Program-made: the position numbers and the translations under genes | Assembly: GCA_014905635.1 (NCBI GenBank) | Contig: JABVCE010000025.1 | Coordinates: 310,001 to 374,000 of the forward strand | DNA from: Scenedesmus sp. PABB004 | Lineage: Eukaryota | Reading direction: 5' to 3' | DNA: 64,000 nucleotides | The notes under the pieces: model-generated | Told to the model about the DNA's origin: nothing | Databases searched by the model: none | What the model saw: the letters and a program-made list of their open reading frames with translations, nothing else | In this document: piece by piece, positions 40,010 to 63,480 of the stretch | Layout of the letters: the number at the start of each line of letters is the position of its first letter | Numbering within the stretch: position 1 is the first letter of the stretch

Positions 40010-40996
40010 ATGGCGGCGCCCTCCCCGAGCCTGTGGCCGCGCCAGCAGGCCCGGCGCGTGCTGGGGCAGCGGGCAGCATTGCCGGCACTCGCTGGGGCCT
40101 GCCTGCTGCTGCTCTTCGTGCTCTGGCCCGCACCCAGCGCCCGCCCGGCGCTGCTGCAGCCGCCCGCGGACGCCACCGACGCAGCAGCGGCGGCCGGTGG
40201 CACCGGCGCGGCGCCGGCAGCAGCAGCAGACGCGGCGGAGCCGGTGCAGGTGCAGCTGTTCGTGATGTCGCAGTGCCCAGGTGCGCGCCGCGCCGGCCGC
40301 GGCGGCCGGCGAGTGCGGCAGCGGCCAGCGCCGCGCGGGCAACCGCCGCGCGCAACCGCCGCGCGCAACCGCCGCCTGCAGACGCGCGCTTCTGCGAGGA
40401 CGCGTTCCGGCCGATCCTTGAGCGCCTGGGGCCGGTCGCGGCGCTGCGCACGGACTACATCGCGGCGCTCAACGCCGAGGGCACGGCCGTGACATGCATG
40501 CACGGCGCGCGCGAGTGTGACGGCAACAAGGCGCAGCTCTGCCTGCAGCGCTACGTGCCGCCGGCGCAGAACGGCGCCTGGTTTGTGCCGGCGCTCAAGT
40601 GCCACATGGGCGGCGACGTGGCCAACACGACGCACCTGGCGGCGTGCATGGCCGAGGTGGGGATGCCCGCCGACCTGCAGGCCAAGGCCGCCGCGTGCGC
40701 GGCGGGCAGCGAGGGCGTGGACCTGCAGGTCAAGTCGGCGCAGGAGGTCAAGGCGCGCGGCGTGGTCAAGAGCTGCACCGTGTTCATCGCCGGCGCCAAG
40801 CGCTGCGTGCGCGACGGCGGGACCTGGTACGACTGCCCCGGCGGCAGCGCCGCCGACGACTTTGTGCGCGCCATCTGCGACGCCCACAAGGCGGCGTCGG
40901 GGCGCGTCGCGCCGCAGTGCGCCGGCGCCGCCGCCGCCGGCGGCGCCGCCCCGCCGCCGCGGCCGCCGGGGGCAGCCCGGCCGGCGGCGCGCCTGA
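40010..40996 (+). CDS. GILT-like (gamma-interferon-inducible lysosomal) thiol reductase; 3' end uncertain
   Basis: N-terminal signal anchor, VQLFVMSQCP|DARFC (CxxS/C-like site split by an intron) and VTCMHGARECDGNKAQLC (GILT CQHGxxECxxN motif). No in-frame stop lies near the expected end (see findings). Confidence 0.8.
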
Positions 40997-41040: not shown

Positions 41041-43278
41041 TCACGCCTCACGCCTCGTCGAACAGCACGGCCTGCAGCAGCGGCACCACCCGCAGCTCGC
41101 CGAGGTCGTCCAGCACGTCCAGCAGCTCGTCCGCCGACTTCGCTGCCAGCACCAGCTCGCGCCTGGGTGCGCGCGCGCGTGCGCGGCGGCGCGGGCAGCG
41201 TGACCGCGCTGCCACGTGCGCTGGGGGCGGCCGCCGGCGCCACAGGAACCCAACCCGTTTGTTTGTGCGCGGGCGCACGCCAGGCGCGCTCTGTAACGCG
41301 TTGCCCCGCGCGTGCGTGCGCCGCCTCCCTCACCTCCAGCTCATCACCGCCGCCGCGAGCACGGCGAGCGGCAGCAGCGAGTCAAACCCGACGACGCGGT
41401 CCCACAGCAGCAGCACCTCGCCCGGCGGGAGCGCGCCGACAAACGCGCCCACGATCCAGGGGAACGCCAGCTCCAGCGCCGAGCCGCCGAGCGCGGTCAG
41501 GTGCGCGGCGACCGCGGGGTCGACCTCCTGCGGGGCGGCGGGCCGAGTCGGCCTGCTCGCCCGTCACGCGCGGCACGGCCACCGCAGCATGCGAGCCCCG
41601 CACGCGCAGCGCGCGCGCCTGCAGCAGCGCCAGGTACGTCGCGGCCAGGACCGCCAGCCCCGCGGCGGGCGCGCGCTCCGCGTTGAGCGTGTGCAGGCGG
41701 CACCAGTGGCGGCAGTACAGCGCCGAGAAGAGGCGGTACACCGCGGCCGGGCGGTCCAGCCCCAGGAAGCACAGCGGCGCGAGGTAGTTGGCCAGGCCCT
41801 GGAACGGCAGCACGCCGCTGGCCGGGTAGGCCCGCAGCAGCCGCCCGCCGCCGGGCGCGGCGTGCTCGGCCGCGAGGCGCGGCGCCACCGGCACCGCCGC
41901 CGCGGCCGCCGCAGCGCCGTCGCGGCTGAACGCCAGCAGCACCGCCCTGCCCGCGGCGGCGGGCGTGGCGGGGGGAGTGTGCGCGAGGCGCGGCGGCGGC
42001 CGCCGCAGCGGCGGCGGGCGCGCGCGCGCGCGCGCGGCGCGCTGCGTGGGCTGCCAGCGACAAAGCGCGCACGCTGCGGCGCACCGCATCGTCTCGGCAA
42101 ATGGAAAGAAGTGTGCGCACTCGGCCACGCGCTGCACGTCGGCGCACGTGAGCACGTCCGTGAGGAGCGCCTGCTGCTCCACGCTGCCGCACAGCAGCTC
42201 CAGCAGCGCCCCGTCCCGCGCGCTGGGCAGGCGCCACCAGTCGGCACGCGCGCCCGCCGCGGCGGCGCCGTCGGCCGCCCCGCCCGGCTCGCCCCCTGGC
42301 GGGGCGCGCTCTGGCGGCGGCGCAGCGTGCAGGCCCAGCGCCGTCGCCCACACCCACGCGCGCTCGCTCGCCGGCACCCCGCAGCGCGCGACCACGCGGC
42401 AGGCCGCCGCGGAGCACGACGCCGCCGCCTGTCGCGCCTGCTGCGCCTGCTGCGTCGCAAACCAGGGGTGCAGCACGTCGTCCGCGCCGACCTGTCGCAC
42501 GCTCGGGCGCAGCTCGGCGAAGAAAGACTGCAGCCACGGCCGCGCCGGCGCCCGCACCACCTGCAGCAGGCTCAGCGGGGCCGCCGCCGGCTGCTGCACT
42601 GCCGCCTCTGCCGCCCCTGCCGCCGCCGGCTGCTCCGCGGTGGTGAGGGCGCGCAGCAGGTCCTCGCCGTCGTACAGCAGCTTGGCCACAGCGGACGCGT
42701 CAACCTGAAAGCCGGCTGCAAAGGCGCCGCTGCCGACGCGCTCCCACGCATGCTGCAGGTCGGGCGCTGCGCGGCGCGGCGGCGGCGGCGCGCAGGTCAG
42801 GTCAGCCGCCGGCCGGGGTGCGCGCGGGCGTTCTGGCGCCGCTGGCACAGTCAGCGCACGCTGGCTGTGCGCAGTGCTCACCCTGCGCGCGGAGCGTGGC
42901 CAGCTCTCGCGCCGAGCGCGGCGCGCCCGCGAGCGGCACGTCTGGCAGCAGCATCTGCGCCGCGGTCAGCCGCTCCAGCACGAGCGCCTGCCAGCGGCGG
43001 TGCGCCGCCGCCAGCACGGCGGCCGCGGCCGCGTCCGGCGGCTGCTGCTGCGGCGCCGACGGTGCGCGCGCGCCGCCCGCGCTGGGCGCCGCGAGGCCCT
43101 CGCGCTCCGAGAACGCCACGCTGGCTGTCAGCGTCGCCACCAGCTCGGCGCTGGGCACCGTGCCGCGCTGCGGCGCCGCGCCGCGGGCGCGCACGACTGC
43201 CTGCTCCGCCTCGCCCGCCAGCTGCGCCAGGCGCTCGTCGCGCGCCAGCACGGCGCTGATGGCGCCACAGGTCGCCAT
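41041..43278 (-). CDS. TBC1 domain family member 19-like Rab-GAP-fold protein
   Basis: DVQRVAECAHFFPF, VLLAFSRD, YPASGVLPFQGLANYLAPLCFL, YRLFSALYCRHWCRLH, AFPWIVGAFVG and VLLLWDRVVGFDS match the TBC1D19 C-terminal domain as I recall it. Confidence 0.8.
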
Positions 43279-43602
43279 CACTGCTGCCTCACCCGCTGCG
43301 GGGCCTCAGCGGGCTGGTGGCGCCGCCGCGGCGCCGCTGCACGTGCGCCGCTGCTGCTGCCGTCCAGCGGCGCCCGCCCGCACTGATCTCGGCCGCGCGT
43401 CCTGGCAAGACCTGGGTGCCGTGGCGCGCAAGCTCGACGAAGCTGGCGGGCTGGCGGCGTCTCGGCGCAAAACCGCCGCGACGCTCGAACGCTCGTTGTC
43501 AGATGGCGCCGCCGCCGGCTGCACGCCCCACTCCGCGGTCCACCGCCGCTCCCCCGCCCCTCTCTGCGGCCCCACAGCGCTCGCGCTCGCACGCCCACCA
43601 CC

Positions 43603-45186
43603 ATGGACCGCGCTGCGCTTGCCGCGGTGCTGCTCGGCCTGCTGCTCGCCGCCGGCCCACCTGCGGTCGCCGCCCGCCGCCTGGCCGACTGGGACGGCTG
43701 GGCCACCGCGCCGCCGTGTCCCAGCGCGCCGACGTGGGACAGCAAGGTCGACGCCAACGGCCGCCGCTGGGGCTGGGCGAGCGGCGCGTCGTGCGCGTTC
43801 AAGGTGCGCGCGCGCCCTCGGGCGCACAGGGCGCATGCGCCCTGTGCGCGCCCTCGCGCGCCGCCGGCGTGAGCGCGCGCACGCCGACTCGGACGGCGCA
43901 GCCCTGGCCTGGCCGCGCGCGCCGCCCGCTCACCGCCGCCGCGCATGCGCGCGCGCGCGCGCTTGCAGGACGACCAGCAGCAGGCGCTGCGCCCCGACGG
44001 GCCGACGCCGAGGCTGGACTGGCTCGCGGTGCAGGCCTGCGGCGAGGCGCCGTCCGCGCTCAACGCCCGCCCTGACGGCGAGGGCCGCCTCTGGGGCGTG
44101 TGGTGGGCCAAGTAAGTGCGCAGCGCCGGCGGCCGTTCGCTCGCCGGCGCGGCCCGCGCGCGAGCGCACGCGCACGCCGGCGCAGCCTCACGCCGCCGCC
44201 TCGCGCCGCCTCGCGTCGCCGCCGCCGCCGCCGATCAGGCCGTGCGCCTTCCGCTCCGCCGCTGGGGCGCCGCTCTATTACGCCACCTACTCCGGCAAGC
44301 GCTACGCCAGCCCGTCGCCGAGCCCCGCGCCGTCGCCGAGCCCCGCGCCGCGCAGCCCGTCGCCGAGCCCCGCGCCGTCGCCGTCGCCGAGCCCCGCGCC
44401 GCGCAGCCAGTCGCCAACCCCCGCGCCGTCGGCGTCGCCGAGCCCCGTGCCATCGCCGATGCGGAGCCCCGTACCGCCGGCGTCGCCAAGCCCCGCGCCG
44501 CCGGCGTCGCCGAGCCCCGCGCCCGCCACGCCGTCGGGGTGCAGCTGCCCCGCGCCGGTCGTGGCGGTCAACGCCTCGGCGCTGGCGGACGCCGTCGTCG
44601 ACCGGCTGTTTGCCCAGTTTGCCGCCGCCACCAAGTGAGCGCGCGCTGCGCTGCACGCCTGGCGAGCCGGCGGCGGCCGCGCGCGCCGTCCTGCGAGCCC
44701 CTCTGCTCACGCTGCCCGCCCGCCACCCCCGCCGCCGCACGCCCCTCATCCAGCGGCTACGAGGACGGCCAGATTGTCGCCGCCGAGGGCCCGTCTTCGC
44801 CGGCGCCGCGCCCCGCGCTGCCCAGCGGGGAGGAGCTGACGGCGGCGCTCCTGGCCGCGCTGGCCGCGGTGCGCGACGGCGGCGGCGGTGCCGCCCCGGC
44901 AGGCTCCGGCAGCCTGAAGCAGGCGAGCGACGACACGCGCGCGGTGCTGGAGCCGACGCGGCCGTCCGACGACGCGCGCGCCACCGACATGCAGCCCCCC
45001 ACGCCCTCGCCGGCGGCGCCCGCCAAGCCCGGCGCGGCAGGCGGCGAGGCCTGGGCCGGCGGCGCGGCCGAGGCGCGCAGCCAGGAGCCGCCCGCGGCGG
45101 CGAGCGTTGCCGGCCTGGCGCAGTCGCAGGTGCCCCTGACGCGCGCCGAGGACACGCCCCGGGCCGCGAGCGGCGGCGGCGCGTGA
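43603..45186 (+). CDS. Secreted Trp/Cys-module (CBM10/dockerin-like) protein A: 2 modules plus a Ser-Pro-rich linker
   Basis: Signal peptide MDRAALAAVLLGLLLA; WATAPPCPSAP..DANGRRWGWASGASCAFK; a second module DGEGRLWGVWWAKPCAFR; SPSPAP repeats. Exons at about 43603-43803, 43969-44111, 44239-44635 and 44754-45186. Confidence 0.75.
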
Positions 45187-45220
45187 GCGATGCTGTGCAC
45201 GGCAACCCGACGCCATGGCA

Positions 45221-45824
45221 CCGCGCTGCCCTACGCGGCGCTGCGCGCGTGACGGCGCGGCGCGCTGCCTGGCCCGCCCGCTCGCCTCGGCTGCAGAACG
45301 ATTTTGTGTCTGTGTGCGCGCGCGCTCGCTTATGCGCCCCTGGTGCGCTGGCCTGACTGCTGGCCTGCATTCCTGCCTCGAGTTCTTCTTCTGACCTTCC
45401 ACACCCCTGCACGCTGTTCACTGGCATCTGTCACCTCACGCACGCACGGCGCCATTTATTCCTGCCGCCGCGGCACTGCCATCGCCCTGTCCCGCATGCC
45501 CCGCTGCTGCGATCGCTCTGTAAACGCCCAGGCCCCGGCCCCGGGCGCGCACGAGAGAGTGGCCAGCGTGCGCGTCACACAGAGAAGGTTGCGCCGCCTG
45601 CCACCAACTCCCTGGTCAAGCCTCGCGCGCACGCAGACGTCCTGGCAGTGCCTCATGCAGCTGCGCCCGGCGGGCGCGCTGCGTCCGGGTCGTTATTCGC
45701 CCGCTCGCCCGCAGAGGTCCGCGGCGCGGCTGCGCGGTCAGGCGCGCGCAGAGGCGACCGCCTGCAGGCAGCCGGCGGGCGCGCGGCGGCGGGTGGGCGG
45801 TGGCGCGGCCGCACACAGCGGCGC
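45221..45824 (+). repeat. Left arm of a ~600-bp inverted repeat (partner 47776-48378)
   Basis: Reverse-complement match to 47776-48378 with only about 7 differences seen by eye; contains TGTAA at 45519-45523. Confidence 0.95.
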
Positions 45825-45847
45825 CGCCTGCCTGGCGCGTCCCTCAC

Positions 45848-47271
45848 CTCGGCAACCGCCTGAGCGGGAGCCTCGCCCCTGCTGACTGCCTGCGCCACGG
45901 CCTCGGCCACCGCCACCGCCTCGGCGGCAGACGAGGTGGGCCGGCTGGTGCTTGCAGGCGCGGCGGCAGCAGGCGTCGGCGACGCCTTGGGCGACGCGGC
46001 GGGCGAGGGCGACGGCGACGGCACAGCTGTGGCGCTGCCGCTCCCGCCGCCGCGCCACGCGCAGGAGGTGCCGTCGGGCAGCTGGCCCCAGGGCCGGCCG
46101 ACCGTGTCGCGCACCGCCGCCGTGCCCGCGGGCTGCGCGGTGCACGCGGGCGCCGTGTCCCAGGTGGGCCGCGGCGCGGGCGAGGGGCTGGGGCTGCGGG
46201 GTGCGCCGGGGGACGGCGGCACTGCGGCGTTGGCAGCGCAGCCAGAGCAGCCGGAGCGCACCGGCGGCCCGCCGCCGGCCTCCGCGTTGGCCCCGGCCTG
46301 GCGGGCGGGCGCGGCCGAGGCGGCGCCGGCCGTGAGTGCGGCCGGCGGCGGCAGGGCGGCAGGGCGGGCGGCTGCCTGGCAGCCCGAGCGGTACGCACCT
46401 GGGCTTTGCCGTCGCCGACAGCCTCGGCCTGCGCGGAGGCGTCCGCACTCGCCAGCAGGTGGCGCCAGTCGCCGCCGCTGGCGCCGCCGCCCGGCACGCG
46501 GCAGCTGGTGTTGGTGGCACGGTCCCAGCCCCAGCGCCGGCCCTTGCTGTCCAGGACGGTGGTGTTGGCGCTGGGCGCCATGCGGCACGCCGGCGCCCCC
46601 TCCCAGCTGGTGGTGTTGGCGTTGGGGGCCTGGCGACGGGCGTCAGGGCGGGGCGGCGTCGGCAGGCGCCAGCCCAGCGCGCACGCAGTGCTCCCCGCCG
46701 CGCCCAGCGCCGTGCCTTGAATGCACAGCTCGTGTTGCGACCCGAGTCCCAGCCCCAGAGCCGCCCCGCGGCGTCGCGCTGCGTGTTGTTGGCGGTGGGG
46801 AAGTAGGCGCACGGCGGCGCGGCGTCCCACGCGGCGTCCTGCGACGCCGCCGCCGTGGCGGCGCCCGCGTCGCCGGCGCGCACGATCAGGGTCTTGGTGC
46901 CGCCCGACGCCGACTGCGCGGCGGTCGCGTTGCGGCCGCCCGAGGCGATGGCGGTGGTGTCCACGGTCGCGCCGCCAGCGGCGTTGGAGGTCGCGGACGC
47001 GGCGCCGCCGGCGCTCTGCGCCGCTGCACGCGACGTCGTCTGCAGCAGCGAGCGCCCTGCGCCGGGATGGAAAGAGAGGTGCGGCGCTGCCGGCGTGAGT
47101 GCATGCGCACCGCGGCAGGAGGGGCGCGCGCGCATGAACTTGCAGGGCCGCAGGCGCGCGCGTGCTGCGCGCCAGCCGGGCGCAGCGCTCACCGTGCGGC
47201 GCGCGGGCGTCGGTGGCGGCGGCGGCCGCGAGCAGCACGGCGGCCAGCAGCAGGGGACAGGGGCGGGCCAT
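45848..47271 (-). pseudogene. Secreted Trp/Cys-module protein B: 3 modules, apparently 3'-truncated by the inverted repeat
   Basis: Signal peptide MARPCPLLLAAVLLAAAAA and modules GRLWGWDSGRNTSCAFK, GRRWGWDRATNTSCRVP, GRPWGQLPDGTSCAWR. The last exon ends at a GAG|GTGAGG donor (45847), about 23 bp from the IR arm, with no recognisable next exon. An unspliced read-through would stop at 45653. Confidence 0.6.
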
Positions 47272-47366
47272 CGTGACGGCGCTCGCAGCGCCGCGCGGCC
47301 GACGGCGCAGGTGGAGGCGGAGGCGACGCGCTGGAGGTGGAGGCGGGGGCCTGGGTGGGCTTGGGC
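46602..47366. repeat. Direct repeat copy 1 (partner 50795-51559): 5' half of genes B and C including introns
   Basis: Near-identical sequence at offset +4193; weaker similarity continues to about 47520/51700. Confidence 0.95.
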
Positions 47367-47775
47367 TTGGGCGCGGGGGGGGGGGGCTCGGGCAGGGGCT
47401 CGGACGTCCGCCTGCGCGGGCGCGGGAGCGTGCGGCGCGGCTTGAGGCGAGCGCGGCGGCGCGCGAGCAGGCGCGGCGCAGAGCGCAGCGGGCTGCACGG
47501 GCGCCGGCAGCGGCCCCTGCGGATGTCAGAGCGCGCATCCACGCTCGGCAGCGCAGATCTGGCCCCGTGGGTGCGCACCCAGCGCGCGCGGGGGGCGGCG
47601 GCAGCGCACCTCGGCGGTCGTCGCGGGGGAAAACCGGCAGCGTGCTCCGGCTCTGGACGTGTGCGTTGCAGCCGCCGCGGGCGGTGCCGGTTGGCGAGCG
47701 CAGCCGGCGGCCGTCACGGCGCAGAACCCGCGAGCACGCCCGGGCGCCCCCGCGCGCGCTCGGAGAGGCCAGACC

Positions 47776-48378
47776 GCGCCGCTGTGTGCGGCCGCGCCAC
47801 CGCCCACCCCCGCCGCGCGCCCGCCGGCTGCCTGCAGGCGGTCGCCTCTGCGCGCGCCTGACCGCGCAGCCGCGCCGCGGACCTCTGCGGGCGAGCGGGC
47901 GAATAACGACCCGGACGCAGCGCGCCCGCCGGGCGCAGCTGCATGAGGCACTGCCAGGACGTCTGCGTGCGCGCGAGGCTTGACCAGGGAGTTGGCGGCA
48001 GGCGGCGCAACCTTCTCTGTGTGACGCGCGCGCTGGCCACTCTCTCGTGCGCGCCCGGGGCCGGAGCCTGGGCGTTTACAGAGCGATCGCAGCAGCGGGG
48101 CATGTGGGACAGGGCGATGGCAGTGCCGCGGCGGCAGGAATAAATGGCGCCGCGCGTGCGTGAGGTGACAGATGCCAGTGAACAGCGTGCAGGGGTGTGG
48201 AAGGTCAGAAGAAGAACTCGAGGCAGGAATGCAGGCCAGCAGTCAGGCCAGCGCACCAGGGGCGCATAAGCCAGCGCGCGCGCACACAGACACAAAATCG
48301 TTCTGCAGCCGAGGCGAGCGGGCGGGCCAGGCAGCGCGCCGCGCCGTCACGCGCGCAGCGCCGCGTAGGGCAGCGCGG
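47776..48378 (-). repeat. Right arm of the ~600-bp inverted repeat; comprises the last codons and 3' flank of gene C
   Basis: Reverse complement of 45221-45824. It includes the coding end ALPYAALRA* and a minus-strand TGTAA (TTACA at 48076-48080). Confidence 0.95.
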
Positions 48379-51300
48379 CGCCGTCGGCGCCCAGGAACTT
48401 GCAGTTGGCCGCGTCGGCCTCGGCCCAGCCCCACGCGCGGCCGTCGCTGTCCGCCATCGCGTTGGTCGCGGTCGCGGCGTGCGCGCAGGCCGGCGCGGTG
48501 GCCCACTTGACCGGCACGTAGCCCTCGTACGCGTAGAAGCCACCGTCGGCCGCGCGGTACGCGCACGAGCGGCCCGCCTCAAACCACCAGAGCCGGCCGA
48601 GCGTGTCCTGCGAACCAGCGGCGCAAGAGGCGGCGGCGGCGGCGGAGGCGTGAGCTGCCCGGGCTGGTGGCGGCGGCACGCGGCCGCAGCGCGGGAAGCA
48701 GCCGGGCTGGCCCCGCCGGGCCCCACGCGCGCCTGCACGGCGGTGCGCTTGGTCGGGGCGCCGACGCAGACGGGCGCCGTCTCCCAGGTGGCGCCAAAGA
48801 AGGGCTGGCTGTCCACCGCGGCGGGCGGCGCGGGCGACGCGGCGGGCGGCGCCGGCGACGCGGCGGGCAGGCCGTCGGTGAAGGCGGGCTCCGCGAGGGC
48901 CGGCGGGGGCTGCTCCGCGGCAGGCGCCTCGGGCGCGGGCGAGTCGGCCGTGGCGGCCGCTGCCGCGGCAGGCGCGTCGGGTGCGTCGGGCGTGGCCGGC
49001 GTGGGCAGGTGGTCGGTGTCGATGTGCCCGACGTCGTAGTCGGCGCCCGCGGGGTGGCCGAGGTCGACGCCGGCCGTGCGCACGGGCTCGGCACCCGCCG
49101 CCGCCGGCGACGCGGGCTGCACCGGCGCGGTGTCGGTCGGCGGCGCCGCGGGCGGCGGCGCGGCGACCGTGCACTTGAGGCTCGACGCGCCGGCGCTGGT
49201 CGTCACGAGCTCGCACTTGACGCCGTTGTCGTAGGTCGTGTTGGCCGCGGTCACCTGCTCGCCGGCCGGCGCCGCCGCCGCGCCCTCGCCGCCGGGCGCG
49301 GGCGGCGCGCTCTGGCTGAGCACGACGGGCGCGGGCTGCGGCGCCGCGGAGCCGCGCAGGCTGCGGCGGTGCGCCGAGGGGCTCGGCTTGGGCGTCGTGA
49401 CGGCGGAGGCCTGCGGCGGGGTCGGGCGCGGCGGGGTCGGGCGCGTGCGGCGCCGGCACGTGCCGCGGCGCCGGCACGTGCCGCGGCGCGGCGCGGCGCG
49501 CGTCGTGCGGGGGCGCAACGCCCCCGCCGCGCGCGCCCCACACGCGCACCTGGGAGCCGGTGGGCGTGAGCACGGCCTCCGCGACCGCGGAGCGGCCGCT
49601 GGCGTCGTGCACCACGGCGATGGCGCGGCCCTCGTCCTTGCCGGCGACGCTCTCGGACTCTGCCTGTGGGGCGCCCTTGGCGGGCGGCTGCACAGGCGCG
49701 GGGCTCGGGCTTGCGCCGCCGCCCTGGCCGGCCTCCTTCTTGGAGCTGTACGCGCCGTGCTCCTGGGCGCCGCCGCCAGACGGGATCTCCGGCGGGCGGT
49801 CCTCGGCGGCGTCGGCGACGTCCGCGTCTTCGGCGGGCTTGGGCGAGGGGCTCGGCGAGGAGGCGCTCGGCGAGGAGGGGCTCGGCGAGGAGGGGCTCGG
49901 CGAGGGGCTGGCGGCCTTGTCGTCGCCGGCGTAGTCGTCGGCCTGCGGGGCGCCGGCCTGCGCGCGCGGCGCAGCATGAGCGCGCGGCGGCGCGCCGCGC
50001 CGCGCCGCGAGGGGCGGCAGCGCGGCCGCGCGACAGCGCGCGCCCTGTCGCACCGGCGAGGCGGCAGGCGTGGCATTGTGCTCGCTGTGGTTGCCGCCGT
50101 CGGGGTTGGCGCCGTCGTCGGTGCTGCGGTTGTCGGGGGCGCCGAGGAAGTGGCTCAGCCACGAGGGCGGCGCACCGGGGCCGTGCACGTTCTGCTCGTG
50201 GTCGGCGGCGGCAAAGCGCGGCAGGGCGCCCAGCCAGCCGCCGAGGAAGAGCAGCTTGCGGGACCGGCCCTGCGGCGGCGGCGGCGGCGGGAAGGGGGAA
50301 GGGGGCTCGGCGCGCGCGCGGCCGCGGGCCCAGGGGCGGGCGCAGCGGCCCGTGCGCGTGCGGGGGCGGCGGGGCGCAGGCGGGCTGCGCACCTTGGGCA
50401 TGGCGCAGCTCACGCCCTTCGCCGCGTCCCAGCCCCACAGGTGGCCGTCGGCGTCGGCCACGGCGCGCTCGGCGGCGACGGAGCCGGGGCAGGCGGGCGC
50501 GTTGTCCCAGGAGGGCGTGGCGGCAGGCGCCTGCGCGCGCGCGCCGCAGCGCGGCGGCGCCCAGGCGTGAGCGCCACGGTTGCGCGCGCGCGCGAGCGCC
50601 CATCCTGCAAGCCGGGCGCTGTCATGGCGCGCGCGCGCGCGCCCGTCCTGCAAGCTTGGCGCAGCCGCAGGGCCGCCCGCGCACCTTGAACGCGCAGCTG
50701 GCGCCGCGCGCCGAGTCCCAGCCCCAGAGGCGGCCGGCGGCGTCGACGACGGCGTTGTCCTTGGTGGGCGCGTAGGCGCACGCTGGCGCCGCCGCCCAGC
50801 TGGTGGTGTTGGCGTTGGGGGCCTGGCGACGGGCGGCAGGGCGGGGCGGCGTCGGCAGGCGCCAGCCCAGCGCGCACGCAGTGCTCCCCGCCGCGCCCAG
50901 CGCCGTGCCTTGAATGCACAGCTCGTGTTGCGACCCGAGTCCCAGCCCCAGAGCCGCCCCGCGGCGTCGCGCTGCGTGTTGTTGGCGGTGGGGAAGTAGG
51001 CGCACGGCGGCGCGGCGTCCCACGCGGCGTCCTGCGACGCCGCCGCCGTGGCGGCGCCCGCGTCGCCGGCGCGCACGATCAGGGTCTTGGTGCCGCCCGA
51101 CGCCGACTGCGCGGCGGTCGCGTTGCGGCCGCCCGAGGCGATGGCGGTGGTGTCCACGGTCGCGCCGCCAGCGGCGTTGGAGGTCGCGGACGCGGCGCCG
51201 CCGGCGCTCTGCGCCGCTGCACGCGACGTCGTCTGCAGCAGCGAGCGCCCTGCGCCGGGATGGAAAGAGAGGTGCGGCGCTGCCGGCGTGAGTGCATGCG

Positions 51301-51464
51301 CACCGCGGCAGGAGGGGCGCGCGCGCATGAACTTGCAGGGCCGCAGGCGCGCGCGTGCTGCGCGCCAGCCGGGCGCAGCGCTCACCGTGCGGCGCGCGGG
51401 CGTCGGTGGCGGCGGCGGCCGCGAGCAGCGCGGCGGCCAGCAGCAGGGGACAGGGGCGGGCCAT
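48347..51464 (-). CDS. Secreted Trp/Cys-module protein C: 5 modules with Ser/Pro/Ala-rich linkers
   Basis: Signal peptide and modules GRLWGWDSGRNTSCAFK, GRLWGWDSARGASCAFK, GHLWGWDAAKGVSCAMPK, GRLWWFEAGRSCAYR and GRAWGWAEADAANCKF. SPSPSSPSPSS linker; about 8 exons; TGA at 48347-48349. Confidence 0.8.
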
Positions 51465-51559
51465 CGTGACGGCGCTCGCAGCGCCGCGCGGCCGACGGCG
51501 GAGGTGGAGGTGGCGGCGACGCGCTGGAGGCGGAGGCGGGGGCCTGGGCGGGCTTGGGC
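50795..51559. repeat. Direct repeat copy 2 (partner 46602-47366)
   Basis: Near-identical to 46602-47366 across exons, introns and 5' UTR. Confidence 0.95.
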
Positions 51560-51964
51560 GCAGGGGTCGGCTCGGGCAGGGGCTCGGACGTCCGCCTGCG
51601 CGGGCGCGGGGGCGCGCGACGCAGCGTGAGGCGAGCGCGGCGGCGCGCTAGCAGCGGCGCGGCGCGGAGCGCAGCCGGCACGGGCGCCTGCAGCGGCCCC
51701 CGCGGCGCCCAGGGCGCGGCAAACAGTGCGAGCCGCGTGGGCCGCTCACCTGGGCGAGGCAGGCCGCGCGCGCGCGCGATCAGCGGCGGGCGCGGCGGGC
51801 GGCGGGGGGCCGGCTGGAGGGCCCGGGGTGCGGGGGAGGAAAGGGAGTGGGCGAAGTGGTCGTGGAGGCGGTGGGAGGGGGATTTATGGGCTGGGCGCGC
51901 GCGCGTTTGAACGCTGTGCGGCGGTTCAGCAAAAATGACAACCGTTAGACCGCGGTCAACAAGG

Positions 51965-52011
51965 TCACGCCGCGCTGACCCGTGCTCGACCCGGCCTGCC
52001 CACGCACGGCA

Positions 52012-52044
<33 letters not shown>

Positions 52045-52999
52045 CCGGGGCAGCGGGCGCGCCGGGCGGGGCCTGCACCGCCTGCACCGCCACCAGCAGC
52101 GCCTCGTCGCCGCCGCCCTCACTGGCGAGGCAGGCGGCGGGCGCGCGAGCGTGCGGCTCCGCCTGCGACGCGCCGTGCGCCGCCGAGGCGCGCCGGAACA
52201 GGGGGTTGGCGTGGGCGCCGTGCGCCGAGCCCGCCAGCTCAGGCAGCGCGCGCGCGGCGCTCGCCAGCGCTGCGCCGGCCCCATCCGCCGAGGCGCTCCG
52301 CTCAAGCGCCGCGCCCGGCGCGCCGGACGCGCTGGACGGCCGCGCGGCCGCGGCGCGCGACGCGCGCGCCTCGCCGGCCGCGGGCGGCGTCGCGGCCGCG
52401 ATCGGCGGGGCGCCGGGGGCGTCGCCGGCCCCGTCGCTGGCGCCGGCCTCGCCGCCGGGGCCGGCCGCCGCCGCCGCAAAGTGCTGAGCCAGCTGCGCCA
52501 CGTTGCCGGTGCGGCGCCGGAAGGGCGCCAAGGCTCCGCGGTGGGAGACGATCTGCGGGGCGCCGCCGTCCGCGCAGCCTTGCAGGAAGCCGCTGACCAG
52601 CTCGCGCACGTGCGCGCCGCCCGCGGGGCAGTCGTGCGGGGCGTGCGGTTGCGGGGCCGCGCCGCTGCCAGGGCCTTGCAGCCGCGCCACGAGCTCGCCC
52701 GCCAGCGCGGCGACGCGGCCCGGCCGCGGCGCGCCCGCGCGTTGGTCCGCGCGCGCGGCGCCGGCGCGCGGCGTGGCGGGGCCGCTGCCCGCCGTCAGCA
52801 GCGCGGCCGCCAGCTCCCGCACCACGTGGTGGTGGCCGTGCGGGCCCGGCGCAAAGGGCGAGTCGGCGGCCGCCGCGCACCCGCCGCCGCCGCGCGGGCT
52901 GGCGGCCCGCCGCGCGGCGGCCTTGTGGCTGCCGGCCAGCGCCGCGACGTGGCTGCTCGTCTGGACGGGCGAGCCAGGTTTGGGCTGCGCCTGGACCAT
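51965..52999 (-). CDS. Intronless low-complexity hypothetical protein with repeated HV(R/A)xL short motifs and a poly-Pro tail
   Basis: ORF from MVQAQPKPGSPV with motifs HVAALAG, HVVRELAAAL, HVRELVSGF and NVAQLAQHF. Confidence 0.45.
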
Positions 53000-53358
53000 G
53001 GCTGGCGGCGCGCAGGGGCGCAGGGGCGGTTCGGCGGCGCGTGAGCAGCGACGCGCAGCGCGAGAGGCCGCCCGCTCGCGGCCGCTCACCCAGCGGCTGC
53101 GGGCGCGCCTGAGTTAAATGAGAGCTCACCTGGCGCGGCCGGACGGCTGCAGGGCGCCCTCTGGCGGGGCTGCTGCGCGCAGACAAGGCGCGCGCACTGC
53201 TGCGCGCGCTGCCGGCGAGGTTGCTGCGGCCCAGAGGCGACGAAACGGCAAAGTTGGCGCGCGCTTTCACGGAGGAATTACAGTGCTCAGACGCCACCGC
53301 ACGCAGCGGACTGGGTGGGCGCGACGACGGCGCGCCCGGCTACAGCCGGCCGCAGCGC

Positions 53359-54182
53359 TCAAAACGCCGCCGCCGCAGCCGTCGCTGCCGCGTGCCGCTT
53401 GGTCGGCGACCCTGCCGCCCCGCAGCTGCCCGCGCCGCCGCCAGCGAGGCCGCCGCCGCCGCCGCCGCCGCCCGGCTGGTGCGCGGCGATCCACGCGCGC
53501 AGCGCCGCCGCCTGCGGCTTGTTGAGGCGCACGCGCGGCCGCGCCGTGCGCATGAGCGCAACCGCCTCTTCGGCGCTGCCGGCGCGCCCCGTCGCGATGA
53601 GCAGCGCGGCCATGACCGTCGCGCTGCGGCCGTGCCCGTGCGCGCAGTGGACGTACACGGGCCGGCCGTCGCCGAGCTCGCGCACCGCCCACTCGACGCC
53701 CTGCTGGATCTGCGCCGCGCTCGGCGCCTGCGTGTCCCACGTCGGCAGGCAGAGGTAGTGGTTGGTGTGCCGGCGCGGCAGCTCGCACGTCACGTCCACG
53801 ACCGACACCTTCGGCCCCGGCGGCAGCCAGTCCGCCTGCTCCGGCCAGCCGCCGATGTAGCTGCGCGCCCGCGCGCGGCGGGGCGGCAGGCGCGCAGGCG
53901 CGCTCGGCGGGGGCGGCGGGGCGTGGCGGGGGGCGGCGGGGCGTCCGGCGCGCGCGCGGATCCGGCCCGCGCGCCGCTGCCGCCGCAGCGCGCGCGGCGG
54001 CCGCAGCACGCGCGCGCTGCCCGCCCGCCGCTCACAGCTCCTTGGTGACCTGGTTGAGCAGCGGCTCGCTGCTCTTGCGGCGCTGGATGTAGAGCTTGGC
54101 GAAGAGCCCGGCGTGGTACGGCCAGAGCAGCACGCGGCTCCACGGCGCGACGCTGCCGTCGGCGCGCTTGCCCAGCAGCGCT

Positions 54183-54228
<46 letters not shown>

Positions 54229-54535
54229 AGCATTAATGCATCAACGGAGCGCGTGCCGCCGCTGCTGCTCCCGCGGGTGCCGCCGCTGCTGCTCCACTCG
54301 TGCCGCCGCTGCTGCTCCCGCGGGTGCCGCCGCTGCTCTCCCGCGGGTGCCGCCGCTGCTCACGCGTGGTGTAGGGGCTGGCGGCGTCGCTGGCCGCCAG
54401 GGCCACGCAAAAGCCGACTCCCGCAACGTGTGCCAGCCCCGCGGTGGCGGCGAGCGGCAGCCGACTGCGCAGGACGACAGCGAGCGTCGCCGGGACGAGC
54501 GACACCGCGCCCACGATGTACGTCAGCCCGCCCAT
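53359..54535 (-). CDS. Membrane-anchored dual-specificity phosphatase (YnbD-like)
   Basis: N-terminal TM helices, LLGKRADGSVAPWSRVLLWPY, YIGGWP, VVDVTCELPR, YLCLPTWD and the catalytic VYVHCAHGHGRS (HCx5R). Confidence 0.9.
54253..54362. repeat. Intronic minisatellite (~24-bp unit GTGCCGCCGCTGCTGCTCCCGCGG, about 4.5 copies) next to a (GGC)n tract at 54184-54228
   Basis: Visible tandem units inside the phosphatase intron 54181-54363. Confidence 0.85.
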
Positions 54536-55142
54536 CGCTCAAGCGCTGCCAGGGCCGCCGGGGCGCACGGGAGCCGCTGATGGAGGAGATGCAGGCGCTG
54601 CGCCTCCTCTCCTCTCCTGGCGCCCGGGGACGGCGCGCCGAGCAGCGCCGCTGTCTGCTGTCGGGCGGCGTGCCGGTGGCGCGCGGGAGCGCGACGGCAG
54701 CTGCCTGGGGCGGTCAGGGCGACTGGAGCGAGGTGCGGCGCGCCAATGGGTGCCGCGCGCGGCGGGGCGTCGCATGGCGCCGGGGCTCTGTGAGCCCTGG
54801 TCGGAGGCGGTGCAGGGTGCGGGCGCCCAGGCCACGCGGCGACGGTTGCCCGTCCAGCCCCTCCCGCCGCAGCGTTTCTCAGCTGCGGCGCGGCTTATTG
54901 GGCGCCCCGCACGCCCTTGCGGGCCACGCGGACCAGCGCGGCGCGGCGGCACGCGCGGCGAGAATTGCGCCGTGACGGCAGAGCAGTGCATCACGCAGAC
55001 CCGGGCCCAGAAAGGCCATCTAAGAGTGCCAGGCAGGAGTTCGACCGATCCCCCCCCCCCCCTGCGCGCACCAGCGCAGGCGTCGCGAGGTGCGCACACG
55101 GGCGCGCGCGGGTGCGCACACGCGACGCGTTATTGGCATGGC

Positions 55143-58097
55143 TCACGCGGCGCCGAGCTTGGCGCGCAGAACGCCGGACATCAGGGCCATCGCCCGCACG
55201 GCAGCGCCGGCGTCGGCGATCGCCGCCGGCGCCGACTCGCGCACCACGACCGCGGCGGCGGTGGCTGCGGCCGCGGCGGCCGCCGGCGCGGGCGCCGCCG
55301 CTACGGGCGGCGCCGCGGCGGCGGGCGCGGGCCCGCCCGCGGAGGGCGCGGGCACCGCGCCGGCGGCCGCCGGCGCCGGGTCGGCGGCGCGGGCCGCGCG
55401 CGGCGGTGGTGGCGGCGCCAAAGTATTCTGGGTAGTACACCGGCTGCCCGCGGGCGTCCTTGAAGGCACAGCTCGCGCCCCCGGCGCCCAGCCCCACAGG
55501 CGGCCGTCGCCGTCGCCCATGCTGCTGTCCGGCCCCGGCGCGCCCGCGCACGCGGGCGCGGCGTCCCACGCCGCCAGCGCAAAGCCGGCGTCCGCGAGCG
55601 GCGTGCCGTCGGCGGCCTTGAAGGCACAGCTCGCGTTGCCCTCAAAGCCCCAGAGACGGTGCATGGTGTCCTGCGCGGCGGCCGGGCGGCCAGCGGCGGC
55701 GGCGGCCGCCGCGCGTCAGCCGAGGGGAGGACGGCCAAAGCTGGCAGGCGCGCCCCTGCACCCGCGGCTGCAAGTGGCGCCGCTGAGCCCACCTGCACGG
55801 AGTTGGCCTCGCTGGGCGCGGCGGCGCACGGCAGCGCGGTGGCCCAGCTGGGCGCGAGCGCGTTGAGCGCGGGCGGCGCGGCGGAGCCCTCGGGCGTCAG
55901 CGGCGGCGCGGCCGGCTCGAGGGGCTTCAGCGTCGCGTTGGCGGGCGCGGTCGTGTTGACGGGGGCGGTCGCGTTGGCGGGGTCGGTTGCGTTGCCCAGC
56001 GGCTGCAGGGCAGTGACGTTGGTGGGGGCAGTCGCGTTGGCGGGCGGCTGCAGGGCGGTGGCGTTGGAGGGCGCGGTCGCGTTGCCAGGGGGCTGCAGGG
56101 TGCTGGCGCCGATGCCGCCTGCGAGCAGACGCAGCCGTGCACGCGTGAGCGCGGGGGTGGTGCGAGCCGCGCCGGCTGCGCCCGAGCAGGGTCTGCCAGC
56201 CAGCCCAGCAGCTGCGCACCGGTTGCCAGCGCGGACGAGGTGGCGGAGGCCAGGGCGGCGGCGGAGGAGTTGGCGCTGGCGGTGGCGTTGGAGGCCGCAG
56301 CAGCCGAGGCGCCGGCTGTGGCGGCGGCCTGCGACAGCGCCGTGGCGCGCCCGCCCGTGGAGGTGGCGAGCGCGCCAGCAGACGCCGCTGCCGCCGCGCC
56401 GCTGAGCGGGTCGGCGCCCTGCAGCAGCTTCCTGGGCAGGGCTTCCAGGGCTGCCTGCTGTGGGCTGGCCGCCGGCGCGGCACCTGGCTGATCCTGCGCC
56501 GGTAGCTGCGCGGCGGGCGTGAGCGTGCTGCTGAGCTGGCGCGCCTGGGGCACGGGCATCAGCTGCGCGCGGGTGGGCGGGCGGCGCGGCGAGGTCGGGG
56601 CGGTCGCTGCCAGCCCCAGGTGCGGTGCTCGCCTGCGCCGCAGGCGGCCGCACCGGGTCAAAGCTGTGCCCCGGCGCGGCGGCCTGGGCGGCCAGCGCGG
56701 CGAGGGCGGCCAGTGCGTCGGCGGCGCCGCCGCCGCGCAGGCCGGGCGCCGCCTCGGCCATGCGCATGAGCTGCTCCATGGAGCCCAGCCGGATGGCCCG
56801 GCCACCCTGCGAGCGGTGCGGGCGCCCGCGCCGGTCAGGCGCCTGCCTGCTCACTCGAAAACCGGCGCGCCCCCGCCGCCCGCGGTGTGTGTGTGTGTGC
56901 CCCGGCCCGCACGCCGGCCGGCGGCGCTCACCGTGCCCCTGGTGCCGGGCAGCGTGGGGCCGCCGGGGCCGTACTCCAGGCTGCGCTCGGGGATGGCGCT
57001 GAGGGGGACGGGCTTGTGGATGACGGCGTGGCTCTCGGAGATCGTAAACGAGGGCTGCGGGGTCTCCGGCAGCAGCGGCGACACCACGAGCGTCCCGCGC
57101 TGCAGGGCAGCGCGGCACGGCCGCGCGCGGCGTCAGGCGCGGCGGGGCCGGGCGGCGCCGGCGCATGCGCGCGGCGGCGGCCGGCGGCCCGTGCGGCGCC
57201 GCACGCCCGCGCACCGACGCGTGCTGCGGCGGCGCGATGCCGCCCGGGCCGCCGTCAGTCCAGTCGAGGGGGCGCGTGGCGGCGACGTCGTCTGACCAGT
57301 CCGGCACCGTGGGCGTCTTGGTCGCGAGCGGGGCCGCGTCCTGCGAGCAGGCGGCTCGCGCGGGTTGAGCTCGCGCGGTGCCCTGCCAGACGCGCGGCGC
57401 GCCGTGCGCGGCCGAGGCGTGCCTTGGGCGCCGCCGCGTCGCGGGTGGCGCCGTCCTGCGCCAGGCGGCGGCCGGCGGGCGCGCCCGGCGGCGCGTCGGG
57501 TGCCAGCGGCGCGAAGCGGGCGTTGCTGTTGTCGGGCAGCTCGCTGGCGTCAAAGGTCTCGTTGAAGCGCGCGGCGACCTCGTCCTGGGTGTAGTAGGGC
57601 TGGGCACGCTTCTGCGGCGGCGCGCGGCGGGGGAGCGCGTGAGCATGCGGCGCGAGGCTGGCGCCCACGCACGGCGCGCGGGCGGCGCGCGCACGTGGCC
57701 GATCGCGCCCACGCCGGTCACGACGGGCGGCGCCTGCAGGGACGAGTTCTGCGCGTGGGGGAGCGGCGGCCGGCGCGAGCTCAGACCCGTCACGGCGCGC
57801 AGCGGCGGGCCCGCGCCCGGCCGCCCGCCGCACCTTGCCCTGGGTGCCCCACGTCGGCGGCGGCGCCGCGGGCGCGGCGCCGGGGGCGCTGCCCGCGCCG
57901 ACCGCGGCGCCGTCGTCCGCGACGCCCGCCGCGGCGGCGCGCGGGCCCTCGTACGCGCCGTCGCCCTGCGCCGCGGCGCCGTTGATCGCCGCGGCGGGCG
58001 GCGGCGGCAGCGTGACGTTGCAGGTGCGGTTGTAGCCGTCGTAGGTCAGCGGCTCTGCGGTGGTCTCGTTCTTGAACGCGCAGTTCCTGCAAGCCCG

Positions 58098-58130
<33 letters not shown>

Positions 58131-59133
58131 ACGCGCGTGTGGGCGGTGTGGCGACGGCGCTTGCAGGACAGGCGCGCGCGCGCGCGGAGCTTGCACGGCA
58201 GGGGCGCCGCCGCCCCGCGAGGCGCGCGCGCGCGCGCGCGCGCGCGTGCGCACCTGTCGAGCTGCCACCCCCACAGGCAGCCCTGGGCGTCGGGGCGCGC
58301 GTTGTCGGGCGTCGGCCGCGCGTCGAGGCTGCACGCCGGCGCGTCGGCCCAGCCGAGCCGCACGTACGCGCGGTCGATGGGGATGGGCTGCTGCTGGTCG
58401 TCCTTGAAGGCGCAGAGGCGCTGGCCCTCCCAGCCCCAGACCTTGTAGCGCGAGTCGGCGACCGCCGAGTCGGGGAAGGGCGCGCTCGCGCACGGCGGCG
58501 TGGCAAGCCAGTCGCCGGGGAAGTACTCGACATACAGCAGCACCTGCGCGGCGCGGGCGCGCCGTGGGCGGCCGCGCTCGGCGCGCGGCGCGGAGGCGTC
58601 GCGCACAAGGCGCCGCGCGGCGCACGCCGTGGGGCCGGCAGGCGGCGGCGGCGGCCGGCGGCGGCGCGCGCACGTGGTCGCCGGCGTCCTTAAACGCGCA
58701 GGACCTGCCGCCGCGCCAGCCCCACAGCCGGCCCTCGCTGTCGGCGACCGACGTCGCGTTGGTCGGCAGCGCCAGGCAGGGCGGCGCGGCGGCAAAGCTG
58801 GGCGGCGCGGGCGCCGCGGCGGGCACGGCGGCGGGCGCCTTCACGGGCGTCGCGGCGGGCGGCGCCGGCGCGGGGGACTGGAGCAGGCGGCGGCCGGCCG
58901 CGCCGGACAGAGCCTCGGCGACGCCCTGCACGCGCGCGCAGCGCGGCGGGTGAGCAGCGGCCCCGCCCCCAGCGCGCGCCGCCCGGCGCGCCGCCGCCGC
59001 CGGCGCTCCGGGACCTCACCGTATCAGGCGCGCCGCGCGGCGGGCGCGCAGCGGCCAGGCCGGCGGCGGCGAGCAGGAGCAGCTCGGCCGCCGCGCGCGC
59101 GCAGGCGGCGCCCCGGCGGCTGGGGCGCGCCAT
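55143..59133 (-). CDS. Secreted Trp/Cys-module protein D: 5 modules, N-glycosylation-rich NATA repeats, many exons
   Basis: Signal-like MARPSRRGAACARAAAELLLLAAAGLAAA. Modules GRLWGWRGGRSCAFKD, YKVWGWEGQRLCAFKD, GCLWGWQLDR-NCAFK, HRLWGFEGNASCAFK and GRLWGWAPG[shift]SCAFKD. Exons chain through AG|GT/GC junctions; the repeat region reads NATAPSNATALQPPANATAPTNVT. Confidence 0.7.
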
Positions 59134-59542: not shown

Positions 59543-60842
59543 TCACTTCGGCAGGCCGAGCAGGCGCGGCGTGTAGGCGGCGCCGTCGCCGCTGCGCCCC
59601 GGCAGCAGGTCGTCCGGCGCGGGCACGCCCGTGGCGGCGCTGATGCGGCGCTCCACCTGGCGCGCCTGGCGCGCGAGCGTGTCGCCCTGCGCGTCGCAGC
59701 CCGGCACGAGCAGGCCGGTGACCTCGGAGACGAACACCGGCGCGCAGGCGCCCGCCGGCAGCACGACGTTGCCGACCATGGTGCGCGACGCGCACGCCTT
59801 GGCCACGCACGTGACGCCCGCGCCGGGCGGGCAGGCGTTGCCCTTGCAGGGGTCGCGCGCGCACTTGGAGGGCCCCGGGCGCGCGGCGCCTGCGCGCGCG
59901 GCGGGCGCGGCGGCGGGCGCGGCGGCGGGCGCGCGGTCGCGCACGCAGCGCCGGGCGCGCGGCTGCCGCGGCCCACGCCGCCAGCTCGAGCTGCCGGCGC
60001 GCGCGTCGCCGCACCCAGGCACTGCTTGCCCAGCAGGCCGGCGAGGCCGGGCCCGTCGGCGTCGGTCCGCTGCGACGGCCAGGCCGGGTACGGCACGCAC
60101 GCGCGGCCCAGGTTGAGGTGCGGCTTGATCGAGTCGCCGACCGCAGCATGCTGCAGCACATACGCGCCGTCGCACGCGGCCGCGGGCTTGGCGGACAGCA
60201 GCATCATGTACCTGCGCGTGCGCGCGCAGCGACGGTTCAGGCGGCACGGCGGCGGCAGGACACTAGTGCCGCGTGCAGTGCCGCCAGCGCGCGCCGCGCG
60301 CACTTGAAGCCCACTGTGATGACGCACGGCGGCGCCGCGCCGGGCGCGCGCTGCGGCGGCGGCGGGGTCTTGACCGCGATGACGCAGCGCCCGAGCACGT
60401 CGACCGCCCCGCCGCCGCCGGGCGCGCCGGGGTCGTCGGCGTTCTGGCGGCACGCGACCGCGCCCTTGTGCACGCACGCCACGGCGACGAGCAGCAGCGT
60501 CGGCGCCGCGTCGCTGCTCCCGGGGGCATCGGCGGCGCTGAAGCTGGCGTCGAGGGTGCCGTTGCTGGCGCAGGTCAGCTCGCCCGCGCCGGCGGCGACG
60601 ACGATGCCCGTGAGAACAACGGCAGACTCCTCCGCAAGCCGCTTGGAGAGGGAGGAGGGCGTGCCGGGCGCCGCGCAATCGTTCAAAGCGGCGCCGGCGT
60701 CCGGGGCGGCGCCGGCGTCCGGGGCGGCGCCGGAGTTGGCGATGCCAGGCACGGGATCGCCAGCGCCGTCGTCGGCGGCCGCGCTTCGGCCGGCGGCGAG
60801 CACGAGCAGCGCGAGCAGCGTGGCGCGGCGGGTGCGCGGCAT
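59543..60842 (-). CDS. Secreted cysteine-rich protein, possibly with an NtA/TIMP-like OB-fold domain
   Basis: Signal peptide MPRTRRATLLALLVLAAG; C..SLSKRLAEESAVVLTGIV...VAVACVHKG...CVITVGFK|YMMLL; C-terminal CARDPCKGNACPPGAGVTCVAKAC..CAPVF. Three exons. Confidence 0.7.
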
Positions 60843-61280
60843 GGCGGCGGCGAGGCTCGTGCTGGAAGGGGGGTGGAGGGAGTGGCGCCGCGACCGGCGG
60901 CGCTGGCTTAAGTAGCCAGGCCACGGCGCGAGCGCTGCGCCGGAACCACGCCTCGGACGCGCGACGCGCGGAGCTGCGCAGCCGCGTCCCAGCGCACCGC
61001 TGCGAAGCTGCCACACCTGAGAGCGGGAGCTGAGGCGCCAACTGGAGAGGCGGGCTCGCGCAGCCGACGACGCGGCCGGGCCGCCTGGGGCGCTGCGTGC
61101 TGCACCCCGCTGGGCGCTGCGCCGCCGCGCCGCCGCGGCCGCACGTCGATCCGGCGCGACGTCGCGCCTGCCCGACTCCGATCGCACCGCTGGGAGCGCC
61201 GCCGCAGCCGGATCGCGTCGAGCGAGCGCAGGGCGCTGCTGCTGCCGGGATACCTTCGCGTCGCCCCGCGCCACGCCCGC

Positions 61281-63342: not shown

Positions 63343-63363
63343 GGCGCAGCGGCGCGGACGCCC

Positions 63364-63480
63364 GGGCAGCGGGCTGCTGGTGCGCTGGTGGGCAGCGGCA
63401 GCGCGGGCTGCTGCTGCGCTGGTGGGCAGCGGCGCGGGCTGCTGGTGCGCTGGTGGGCAGCGGCGGCGCGCTGCTGCGCT
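63364..63480. repeat. Tandem repeat (~33-36-bp unit containing TGCGCTGGTGGGCAGCGGC, about 3 copies) just upstream of the methyltransferase start
   Basis: Visible tandem units. Confidence 0.75.

Follow-up and report, generated by a model that had tools for sequence, protein, structure and literature searches.

A tandem two-cysteine module in four clustered genes of Scenedesmus sp. PABB004, a probable chlorophycean variant of one-disulphide CBM10

Family 10 carbohydrate-binding modules (CBM10) are small domains of 29-42 residues which, in the parts available of PMC8121702 and PMC4642672, are described as exposing a Tyr8/Trp22/Trp24 face and as being held by two disulphides. The same parts of these papers set apart a subgroup with a single disulphide and a 5-6-residue insertion, lacking Tyr8, whose ligand is galactomannan (Kd 0.3-0.4 g/l) and not Avicel. 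We analyse here a window of 64,000 nucleotides from the green alga Scenedesmus sp. PABB004 (contig JABVCE010000025.1, positions 310,001 to 374,000), the whole stretch of DNA to which the coordinates below refer, and within it four genes, A to D, whose products contain 15 copies of a short module. Computation gives these proteins a signal-like N-terminus, identifies the 15 modules, folds one of them alone and establishes a kinship with bacterial one-disulphide CBM10. We consider it rather probable that the four genes specify secreted, non-catalytic glycan-binding proteins made of a chlorophycean variant of that bacterial module.

The window modules are 35-38 residues long, within the CBM10 size range of PMC8121702. 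Among 339 homologous algal modules, from which a family hidden Markov model (HMM) was built, 322 contain exactly two cysteines, and the Trp22/Trp24-type binding pair of CBM10 is kept as a W-G-W core, with the first tryptophan present in 99% and an aromatic residue at the second place in 89%. Aromatics occupy both variable positions in 288 of 329 algal modules; the first cysteine precedes the tryptophan by 18 residues in 265, and an aromatic residue stands six residues before this cysteine in 324 (seven to eight before it in canonical CBM10). Proline two residues before the first cysteine is common to algal (264/329) and bacterial (94/117) modules. The two disulphides and the spacing of 7 between cysteine and Trp22 that mark a canonical CBM10 are thus not those of the algal module, which displays the features of the one-disulphide subgroup, namely one cysteine pair and an insertion before Trp22, the latter being some six residues longer. 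In the 14 pattern-matched window modules the second place of W-G-W is filled by 10 Trp, 2 Phe, 1 Val (module A2) and 1 Gln (module B3); W-G-W is present in module D2. These two replacements, together with the frameshifted module D5 and the long Ser-Pro, Ala-Pro and NxT stretches of the proteins, would suit a structural role in the wall, the module having lost its glycan specificity and become a disulphide-stabilised self-association or spacer domain. The conservation of both aromatic places across the 339 modules runs counter to such a role, as does the finding of this module at the end of a glycoside-hydrolase-like protein, the usual place of a carbohydrate-binding module, and we regard it as quite unlikely.

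As judged by profile, the algal module is a distant CBM10 relative, below Pfam-level membership, and its nearest relatives are bacterial one-disulphide CBM10s rather than Cellvibrio-type CBM10 or fungal dockerins. A bacterial comparison set was obtained by scanning prokaryote genomes for the pattern W-G-W-E-N-x-x-S-C, which returned at least 118 loci and at least 150 distinct modules; among the matches listed, 33 modules were of the four-cysteine Cellvibrio type and 117 were others, mostly with two cysteines. Hand-picked subsets of 40 (two-cysteine) and 20 of these modules all match Pfam CBM_10 (PF02013). When compared by hhalign, the algal profile and the 40 two-cysteine modules aligned at probability 96 (pairwise E 4e-9, 30 columns), to be set against probability 88 over 13 columns only for the four-cysteine set. 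The former figure is partly circular, because the bacterial set (A5) had been collected with the W-G-W-E-N pattern. As this pattern fixes W-G-W-E-N-x-x-S-C, positions outside it were examined: Asp at -5 together with Gly at -2, as in the algal module, was found in 92 of the 117 bacterial modules, and the algal HMM scored the 150 bacterial modules at 20.9 bits, against 14.2 with shuffled flanks (95th percentile 19.8). The least circular test is the run of the algal profile over nine whole bacterial genomes, five from the pattern scan and four chosen otherwise. It yielded 20 matches at E<=0.1 in seven genomes (best 2e-4), all 20 of them in two-cysteine D-x-D-G-D-G-W-G-W repeats (16 were inspected as loci, the other 4 lying in the same open reading frames, ORFs), and three of the four genomes not chosen by pattern contributed 8 of the 20. 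Two of the proteins matched in these three genomes, which from their motif look like GH26 mannanases, carry four two-cysteine repeats each. A Cellvibrio genome (G001) gave no match to the algal profile. The link to CBM10 proposed in the initial annotation thus survives profile comparison for the bacterial two-cysteine modules and is weaker than first stated for the Cellvibrio type; Pfam itself does not recognise the window modules.

Several observations weigh against this kinship. No exon of the window matched CBM_10, nor did any of the 12 window modules of alignment A3 at E<=1. Matches do appear in 7 of 42 modules of the same genome (G000) at E<=1 and in 54 of 170 homologs at E<=0.01; the 21 of the 170 that exceed the gathering cut-off of 23 bits do so only through summed repeats, and by the same summing the unrelated GMC_oxred_C family once passes its Pfam cut-off. 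The sequence match lies mostly in the C-terminal half of the module, the first cysteines are left unpaired by hhalign, and the spacing from cysteine to tryptophan, 18 in algae, is 12 and 7 in bacteria. A search of PDB sequences matched 1E8R over 12 residues only (E 1.1), and fold searches with Foldseek were not significant (1e8p, E 4.9 and 1.7; 2j4m, E 0.72).

Structure prediction is consistent with an autonomous module. AlphaFold2 models module C2 alone as a small sheet (mean pLDDT 88, predicted template modelling score, pTM, 0.62), and four tandem modules show no packing (pTM 0.39). Of the structural check first envisaged, the folding of a single module was obtained and a significant fold match was not. 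Fungal dockerins contain more cysteines and have Trp-Cys at their end. One has nevertheless to consider that the algal modules might be docking devices of that kind, tethering their carriers to a scaffold protein of the wall or to the glycans on it: 1e8p and 2j4m have the two highest probabilities (0.38 and 0.20) among the Foldseek rows shown for the tandem model, tandem pairs and triples occur on many partners (FN3, CAP and membrane-anchored forms), and the available part of PMC12120621 classes fungal dockerins as CBM10. All such rows fall short of significance (E 0.72-4.9), among them the alignment of 1e8p with the single-module model (38 columns, rmsd 3.1, E 4.9), which leaves the dockerin relationship once suggested for this locus without a supporting match; two cysteines and W-G-W recall bacterial carbohydrate binders, no scaffold was identified, and no glycoside hydrolase was recognised by Pfam among the 170 homologs, hence no cellulosome-like set of cargo enzymes. 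Docking therefore seems unlikely. A still less likely proposal makes each repeat one blade in a beta-propeller lectin of the tectonin/tachylectin type, or sees in it a convergent motif with no relation to CBM10. Propeller proteins do top the Foldseek list of the tandem model (E>=0.13), tachylectin and tectonin clusters appear at 0.75-0.78 in an Atlas feature search, and Reg_prop is weakly matched by the homologs P0001 and P0002. The Atlas values are below the 0.9 bar of that tool, however, and a module predicted to fold alone, an unpacked four-module model and module numbers running from 1 to about 10 per protein with long spacers speak against a propeller; the bacterial whole-genome matches, every one a CBM10-type repeat, speak against propeller and convergence alike.

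We may now return to the glycan-binding variant of one-disulphide CBM10 and to the genes that encode it. The window is intron-rich and about 80% GC throughout, and gene models were spliced by hand with GT-AG or GC-AG introns, GC donors being apparently used by several of them (46715, 50908, 57422, 48732). The resulting products, of 390 (A), 374 (B), 752 (C) and 931 (D) residues, have a third-position GC content (GC3) of 0.93-0.96. On the four spliced proteins the family HMM recovers 15 modules, distributed 2/3/5/5, with scores of 32-66 bits; a six-frame scan of the window gives 16 pieces, equivalent to the 15 modules, at >=10 bits, and the same HMM and cut-off find none in the reversed window and none in five codon-shuffled windows. 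Splice junctions are backed by homologs: P0053 aligns with residues 96-244 of D at 58%, across two junctions, and P0142 with residues 31-123 of A, again across two. The four genes and their module count, as originally annotated, are therefore real, and the products are predicted to be of a secreted type by a hydropathy scan, admittedly crude, which detects one N-terminal hydrophobic stretch in each and no segment of transmembrane strength beyond it. Pfam, run on 23 exon pieces of A-D, returned no relevant family, in line with the absence of a recognisable catalytic domain noted before, and the scan matched neither pherophorins nor any other wall family.

Gene A (43603..45186, plus strand; exons 43603-43803, 43969-44111, 44239-44634 and 44754-45186) codes for a signal peptide, an RRLA motif, modules A1 (43699..43803) and A2 (44020..44254, plus strand like A1 and split by intron 44112-44238), a Ser-Pro rod and a low-complexity tail. 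The other three genes and their modules are on the minus strand. Gene B (45738..47271) comprises exons 47271-47193, 47056-46716, 46629-46399, 46297-45848 and 45761-45738, the fifth being deduced; its end is most likely 45738 instead of the 45848 first given. It encodes a signal peptide, RSLL, a Ser/Ala/Thr segment and modules B1 (46716..46829), B2 (46492..46605) and B3 (46052..46162). Gene C (48347..51464, 8 exons) has a signal peptide, RSLL, modules C1 (50909..51022), C2 (50685..50798) and C3 (50396..50509), RKLL, an acidic Pro/Ala spacer of about 410 residues, and modules C4 (48554..48786, interrupted by a phase-0 intron whose position is that of the D4 intron) and C5 (48392..48505). Gene D (55143..59133, 12 exons, with a product length given as read) has a signal peptide, RRLL, modules D1 (58689..58796), D2 (58403..58510) and D3 (58071..58351, split by intron 58253-58087), a spacer of about 500 residues with RRLA, RKLL and NxT-rich repeats, modules D4 (55617..55846, split by intron 55792-55671) and D5 (55459..55568), and an Ala-Pro tail. 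D5 has a frameshift near 55480, in a G run, and a compensating shift at about 55400, its second cysteine being in another frame; this may be a sequencing error or a real lesion. The view that modules are joined only by Ser-Pro, Ala-Pro or NATA linkers has to be abandoned, as the Ser/Ala/Thr segment of B and C exon 2 is common to homologs and protein C has an extra cysteine pair outside its modules.

The cluster bears the marks of local duplication. A direct duplication (46522..47535 versus 50715-51718; 1016 nt at 93.7%) links B and C: exons 1-2 differ once in 420 nt and the introns at 0/136 and 1/86 positions, and exon 3 matches at just 102 of 139 positions. Near-identity in the first part followed by divergence suggests a recent duplication or a conversion tract, and it is because of this duplication that B1 is identical to C1, leaving 14 distinct modules. 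Gene B is also surrounded by an inverted repeat of 614 nt, 98.4% identical between arms, which is not found in full anywhere else in G000. The left arm (45217..45830), just downstream of A, contains the putative last exon of B and a copy of the last codons and 3' untranslated region (UTR) of C, with TGTAA at 45519; the right arm (47770..48382) contains the stop codon and 3' UTR of C, with TGTAA at 48080. The repeat may be a real rearrangement or an assembly artefact; inversion of the segment between its arms would leave the 3' end of B complete. C4 and D4 are mutual best matches and have a common intron position, which makes C and D older paralogs; only the B/C pair is recent among the window genes.

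Other genes of the window surround the four. An unrelated dual-specificity phosphatase gene (53443-53910, minus) sits between C and D, a qualification to the idea of a continuous four-gene cluster. A TBC-domain gene (41333-43284, minus; weak RabGAP-TBC match, E 1e-4) lies head to head with A, and two genes upstream of A is a GILT thiol reductase gene (40369-40932, plus; Pfam E 4.5e-9), probably by coincidence. Just upstream of D, a Cys-rich, secreted-looking protein (59546-60920, minus) has no Pfam match in three exon pieces; further away are genes for an S-adenosylmethionine-dependent methyltransferase (62962-63399, minus) and for an F-box plus LysM protein (27784-28212, plus).

To describe the module as lineage-expanded, as had been done, understates its distribution: D has close counterparts elsewhere, and the family appears from its homologs to extend over Volvocales and Sphaeropleales. 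A single window exon finds at least 46 matches in G000, of which 13 fall inside the window and 33 on eight other contigs, and the family profile retrieves 316 cluster representatives at E<=0.001 (150 of them listed). Seven homologs come from named organisms, all Chlorophyceae (Chlamydomonas reinhardtii, Tetrabaena, Astrephomene, Haematococcus (2), Pleodorina and Tetradesmus); G000 itself is apparently the source of at least P0026, P0074 and P0094. Near-identical tandem duplicates of module genes occur elsewhere in that genome (L035 and L036; L039 and L040), and public gene models P0094 and P0010 fuse a module gene to its neighbour (RimM shown, RTE1 probable). The architectures seen are multi-module proteins that look secreted; proteins that combine an internal hydrophobic segment, a conserved stalk domain bearing an RxLL-like loop and a Pro-rich stretch with 3-4 modules at the C-terminus (L031-L036, P0169); FN3 fusions (L039, L040); and a CAP fusion (P0008). 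Many paralogs look, from the second layout, membrane-anchored; their stalk domain (L031:3953-4348, L032:478-903, L034:3894-4298, L035:4666-5067) has no Pfam or PDB match. RxLL-like motifs are carried by 22 of the 59 long homologs, where shuffling gave 3.1 (maximum 8 of 200); the regular expression had been tuned on these very proteins. No description of this module family was found in the literature searched.

The rule that the module is always non-catalytic, true of the four window genes, is broken by a paralog, L041 (G000:C13, about 1433.9-1437.1 kb, minus), whose protein opens with a signal-like start, continues with a domain of about 450 residues, a coiled segment and a linker of Ser-Pro type, and closes with two modules. 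One exon of this domain has eight further matches in G000. A bacterial homolog, L173, resembles it at 28% over 323 residues (E 2e-23), and the L173 tail matches the two-cysteine CBM10 profile at probability 95 over 33 columns, against 36 for the algal profile; such a CBM10-type tail was present in one of the ten bacterial homolog ORFs examined, that of L173. Homologs of the domain occur in 6 of 131 genomes of another phylum, and one, L181, has a weak CBM_11 match below cut-off. No library searched names the domain. Two conserved glutamates, in G-E-M and S-E-x-G motifs, presumably recall clan GH-A hydrolases, and the domain of L041, L173 and L180-L188 (about 420-450 residues) is possibly a new glycoside hydrolase family. 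Its fusion to the module in L041 and L173 may reflect shared ancestry or independent events.

How such proteins might operate can be sketched. They would enter the secretory path, a subtilase would cut at RxLL-type sites (subtilases process plant pectin methylesterases at RRLL/RKLL, according to the part available of PMC13477033), and the Ser/Ala-Pro stretches would become glycosylated rods. Each module, of 36-38 residues, would close one disulphide and expose the aromatic face of W-G-W, to which the N-terminal Trp possibly contributes, so that clusters of two to three weak modules could bind wall or mucilage glycans by avidity and the wall be organised or tethered by multivalent, low-affinity binding. 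The RKLL/RRLA sites found inside C and D, between one module cluster and the next, speak against cross-linking by a single chain, and the binding, secretion and expression assumed here are predictions from sequence. If they do bind glycans, a beta-1,4-mannan-type chain would be the ligand with a chance just short of even, cellulose or another beta-glucan is a clearly weaker candidate, and glycoprotein glycans are a slightly weaker one still. The walls of Scenedesmaceae and Haematococcus are mannose-rich. The wall of Scenedesmus obliquus has a cellulose layer (PMC11839794, part available), and the covering of Chlamydomonas is described, in the part available of PMC12223506, as containing mannose-rich glycans and no cellulose; a module shared with Chlamydomonas need therefore not bind cellulose. 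The target might also be a foreign polysaccharide, from plant debris, fungi or bacteria, sought for attachment, feeding or defence: bacterial CBM10s are directed at external substrates (PMC8121702, part available), Chlamydomonas uses cellulose (PMC6032398, part available), and the CAP and hydrolase-like fusions (P0008, L041) could be understood in this way. This appears most improbable for four proteins that have no catalytic part and carry wall-glycoprotein-like rods, in a family where many paralogs look membrane-anchored and where the GH9 cellulases of the same algae carry a different module with 10-16 cysteines (PMC6032398, part available).

A more ambitious scenario, which we put forward as speculative and fairly unlikely, is that a one-disulphide CBM10, perhaps carried on an L041/L173-type hydrolase-like domain, became a general chlorophycean reader of wall glycans, deployed in secreted multivalent binders, in FN3 and CAP fusions, and in membrane-anchored proteins with a cytosolic N-terminus that could anchor the plasma membrane to the wall or act as wall sensors. 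Green algae would then possess a hitherto undescribed system for assembling and sensing the wall; how their walls are organised is poorly known, as are the proteins that keep wall glycans in place or connect them with the membrane. A conserved small module of glycan-binding type on many secreted and membrane proteins supplies named candidates for this organisation, and P0001, a Chlamydomonas protein of 860 residues with about ten copies, is amenable to knockout and tagging. The range of CBM10-like modules is at the same time widened to green algae, where they occur largely without enzymes and mostly score under annotation thresholds, and the L041-type hydrolase-like proteins may add a new enzyme family.

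It is finally worth placing the module among the systems already described. With canonical CBM10 (Cellvibrio japonicus Xyn10A, PDB 1E8R; PF02013) it shares the W22-G-W24 ... S-C segment, which aligns, and differs by having one disulphide instead of two, a Cys-to-Trp distance of 18 instead of 7, and no C-N-W-Y start. The non-catalytic dockerins of Piromyces equi (PDB 1E8P, 2J4M) are likewise eukaryotic, tandem and secreted, and their three-stranded sheet with a short helix (PMC12120621, part available) resembles the algal models, albeit with weak Foldseek rows; the algal module has no significant sequence or fold score with them, no cargo enzyme set and no identified scaffold. Chlorophycean hydroxyproline-rich wall glycoproteins have in common with A-D a signal peptide, Ser-Pro rods and globular ends, the globular domain here having two cysteines and three aromatics, when the modules of GH9 cellulases have 10-16 cysteines and are unlike CBM10 (PMC6032398, part available). 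Closest are the one-disulphide CBM10s of bacterial mannanases (BaGH5CBM10, SdGH5CBM10-2; PMC4642672 and PMC8121702, parts available). These sit on mannanases, whereas the algal module is mostly without a catalytic domain; their first cysteine is 12 residues from the tryptophan instead of 18, their core is D-G-D-G-W-G-W instead of G-R-L-W-G-W, and the aromatic six residues before the first cysteine, near-invariant in algae, is found in 3 of 117 of the bacterial modules. Both have two cysteines, P-x-C, D-x-x-G two residues before W-G-W, an x-x-S-C ending, a length of about 36-38 residues, and an arrangement in tandem copies.

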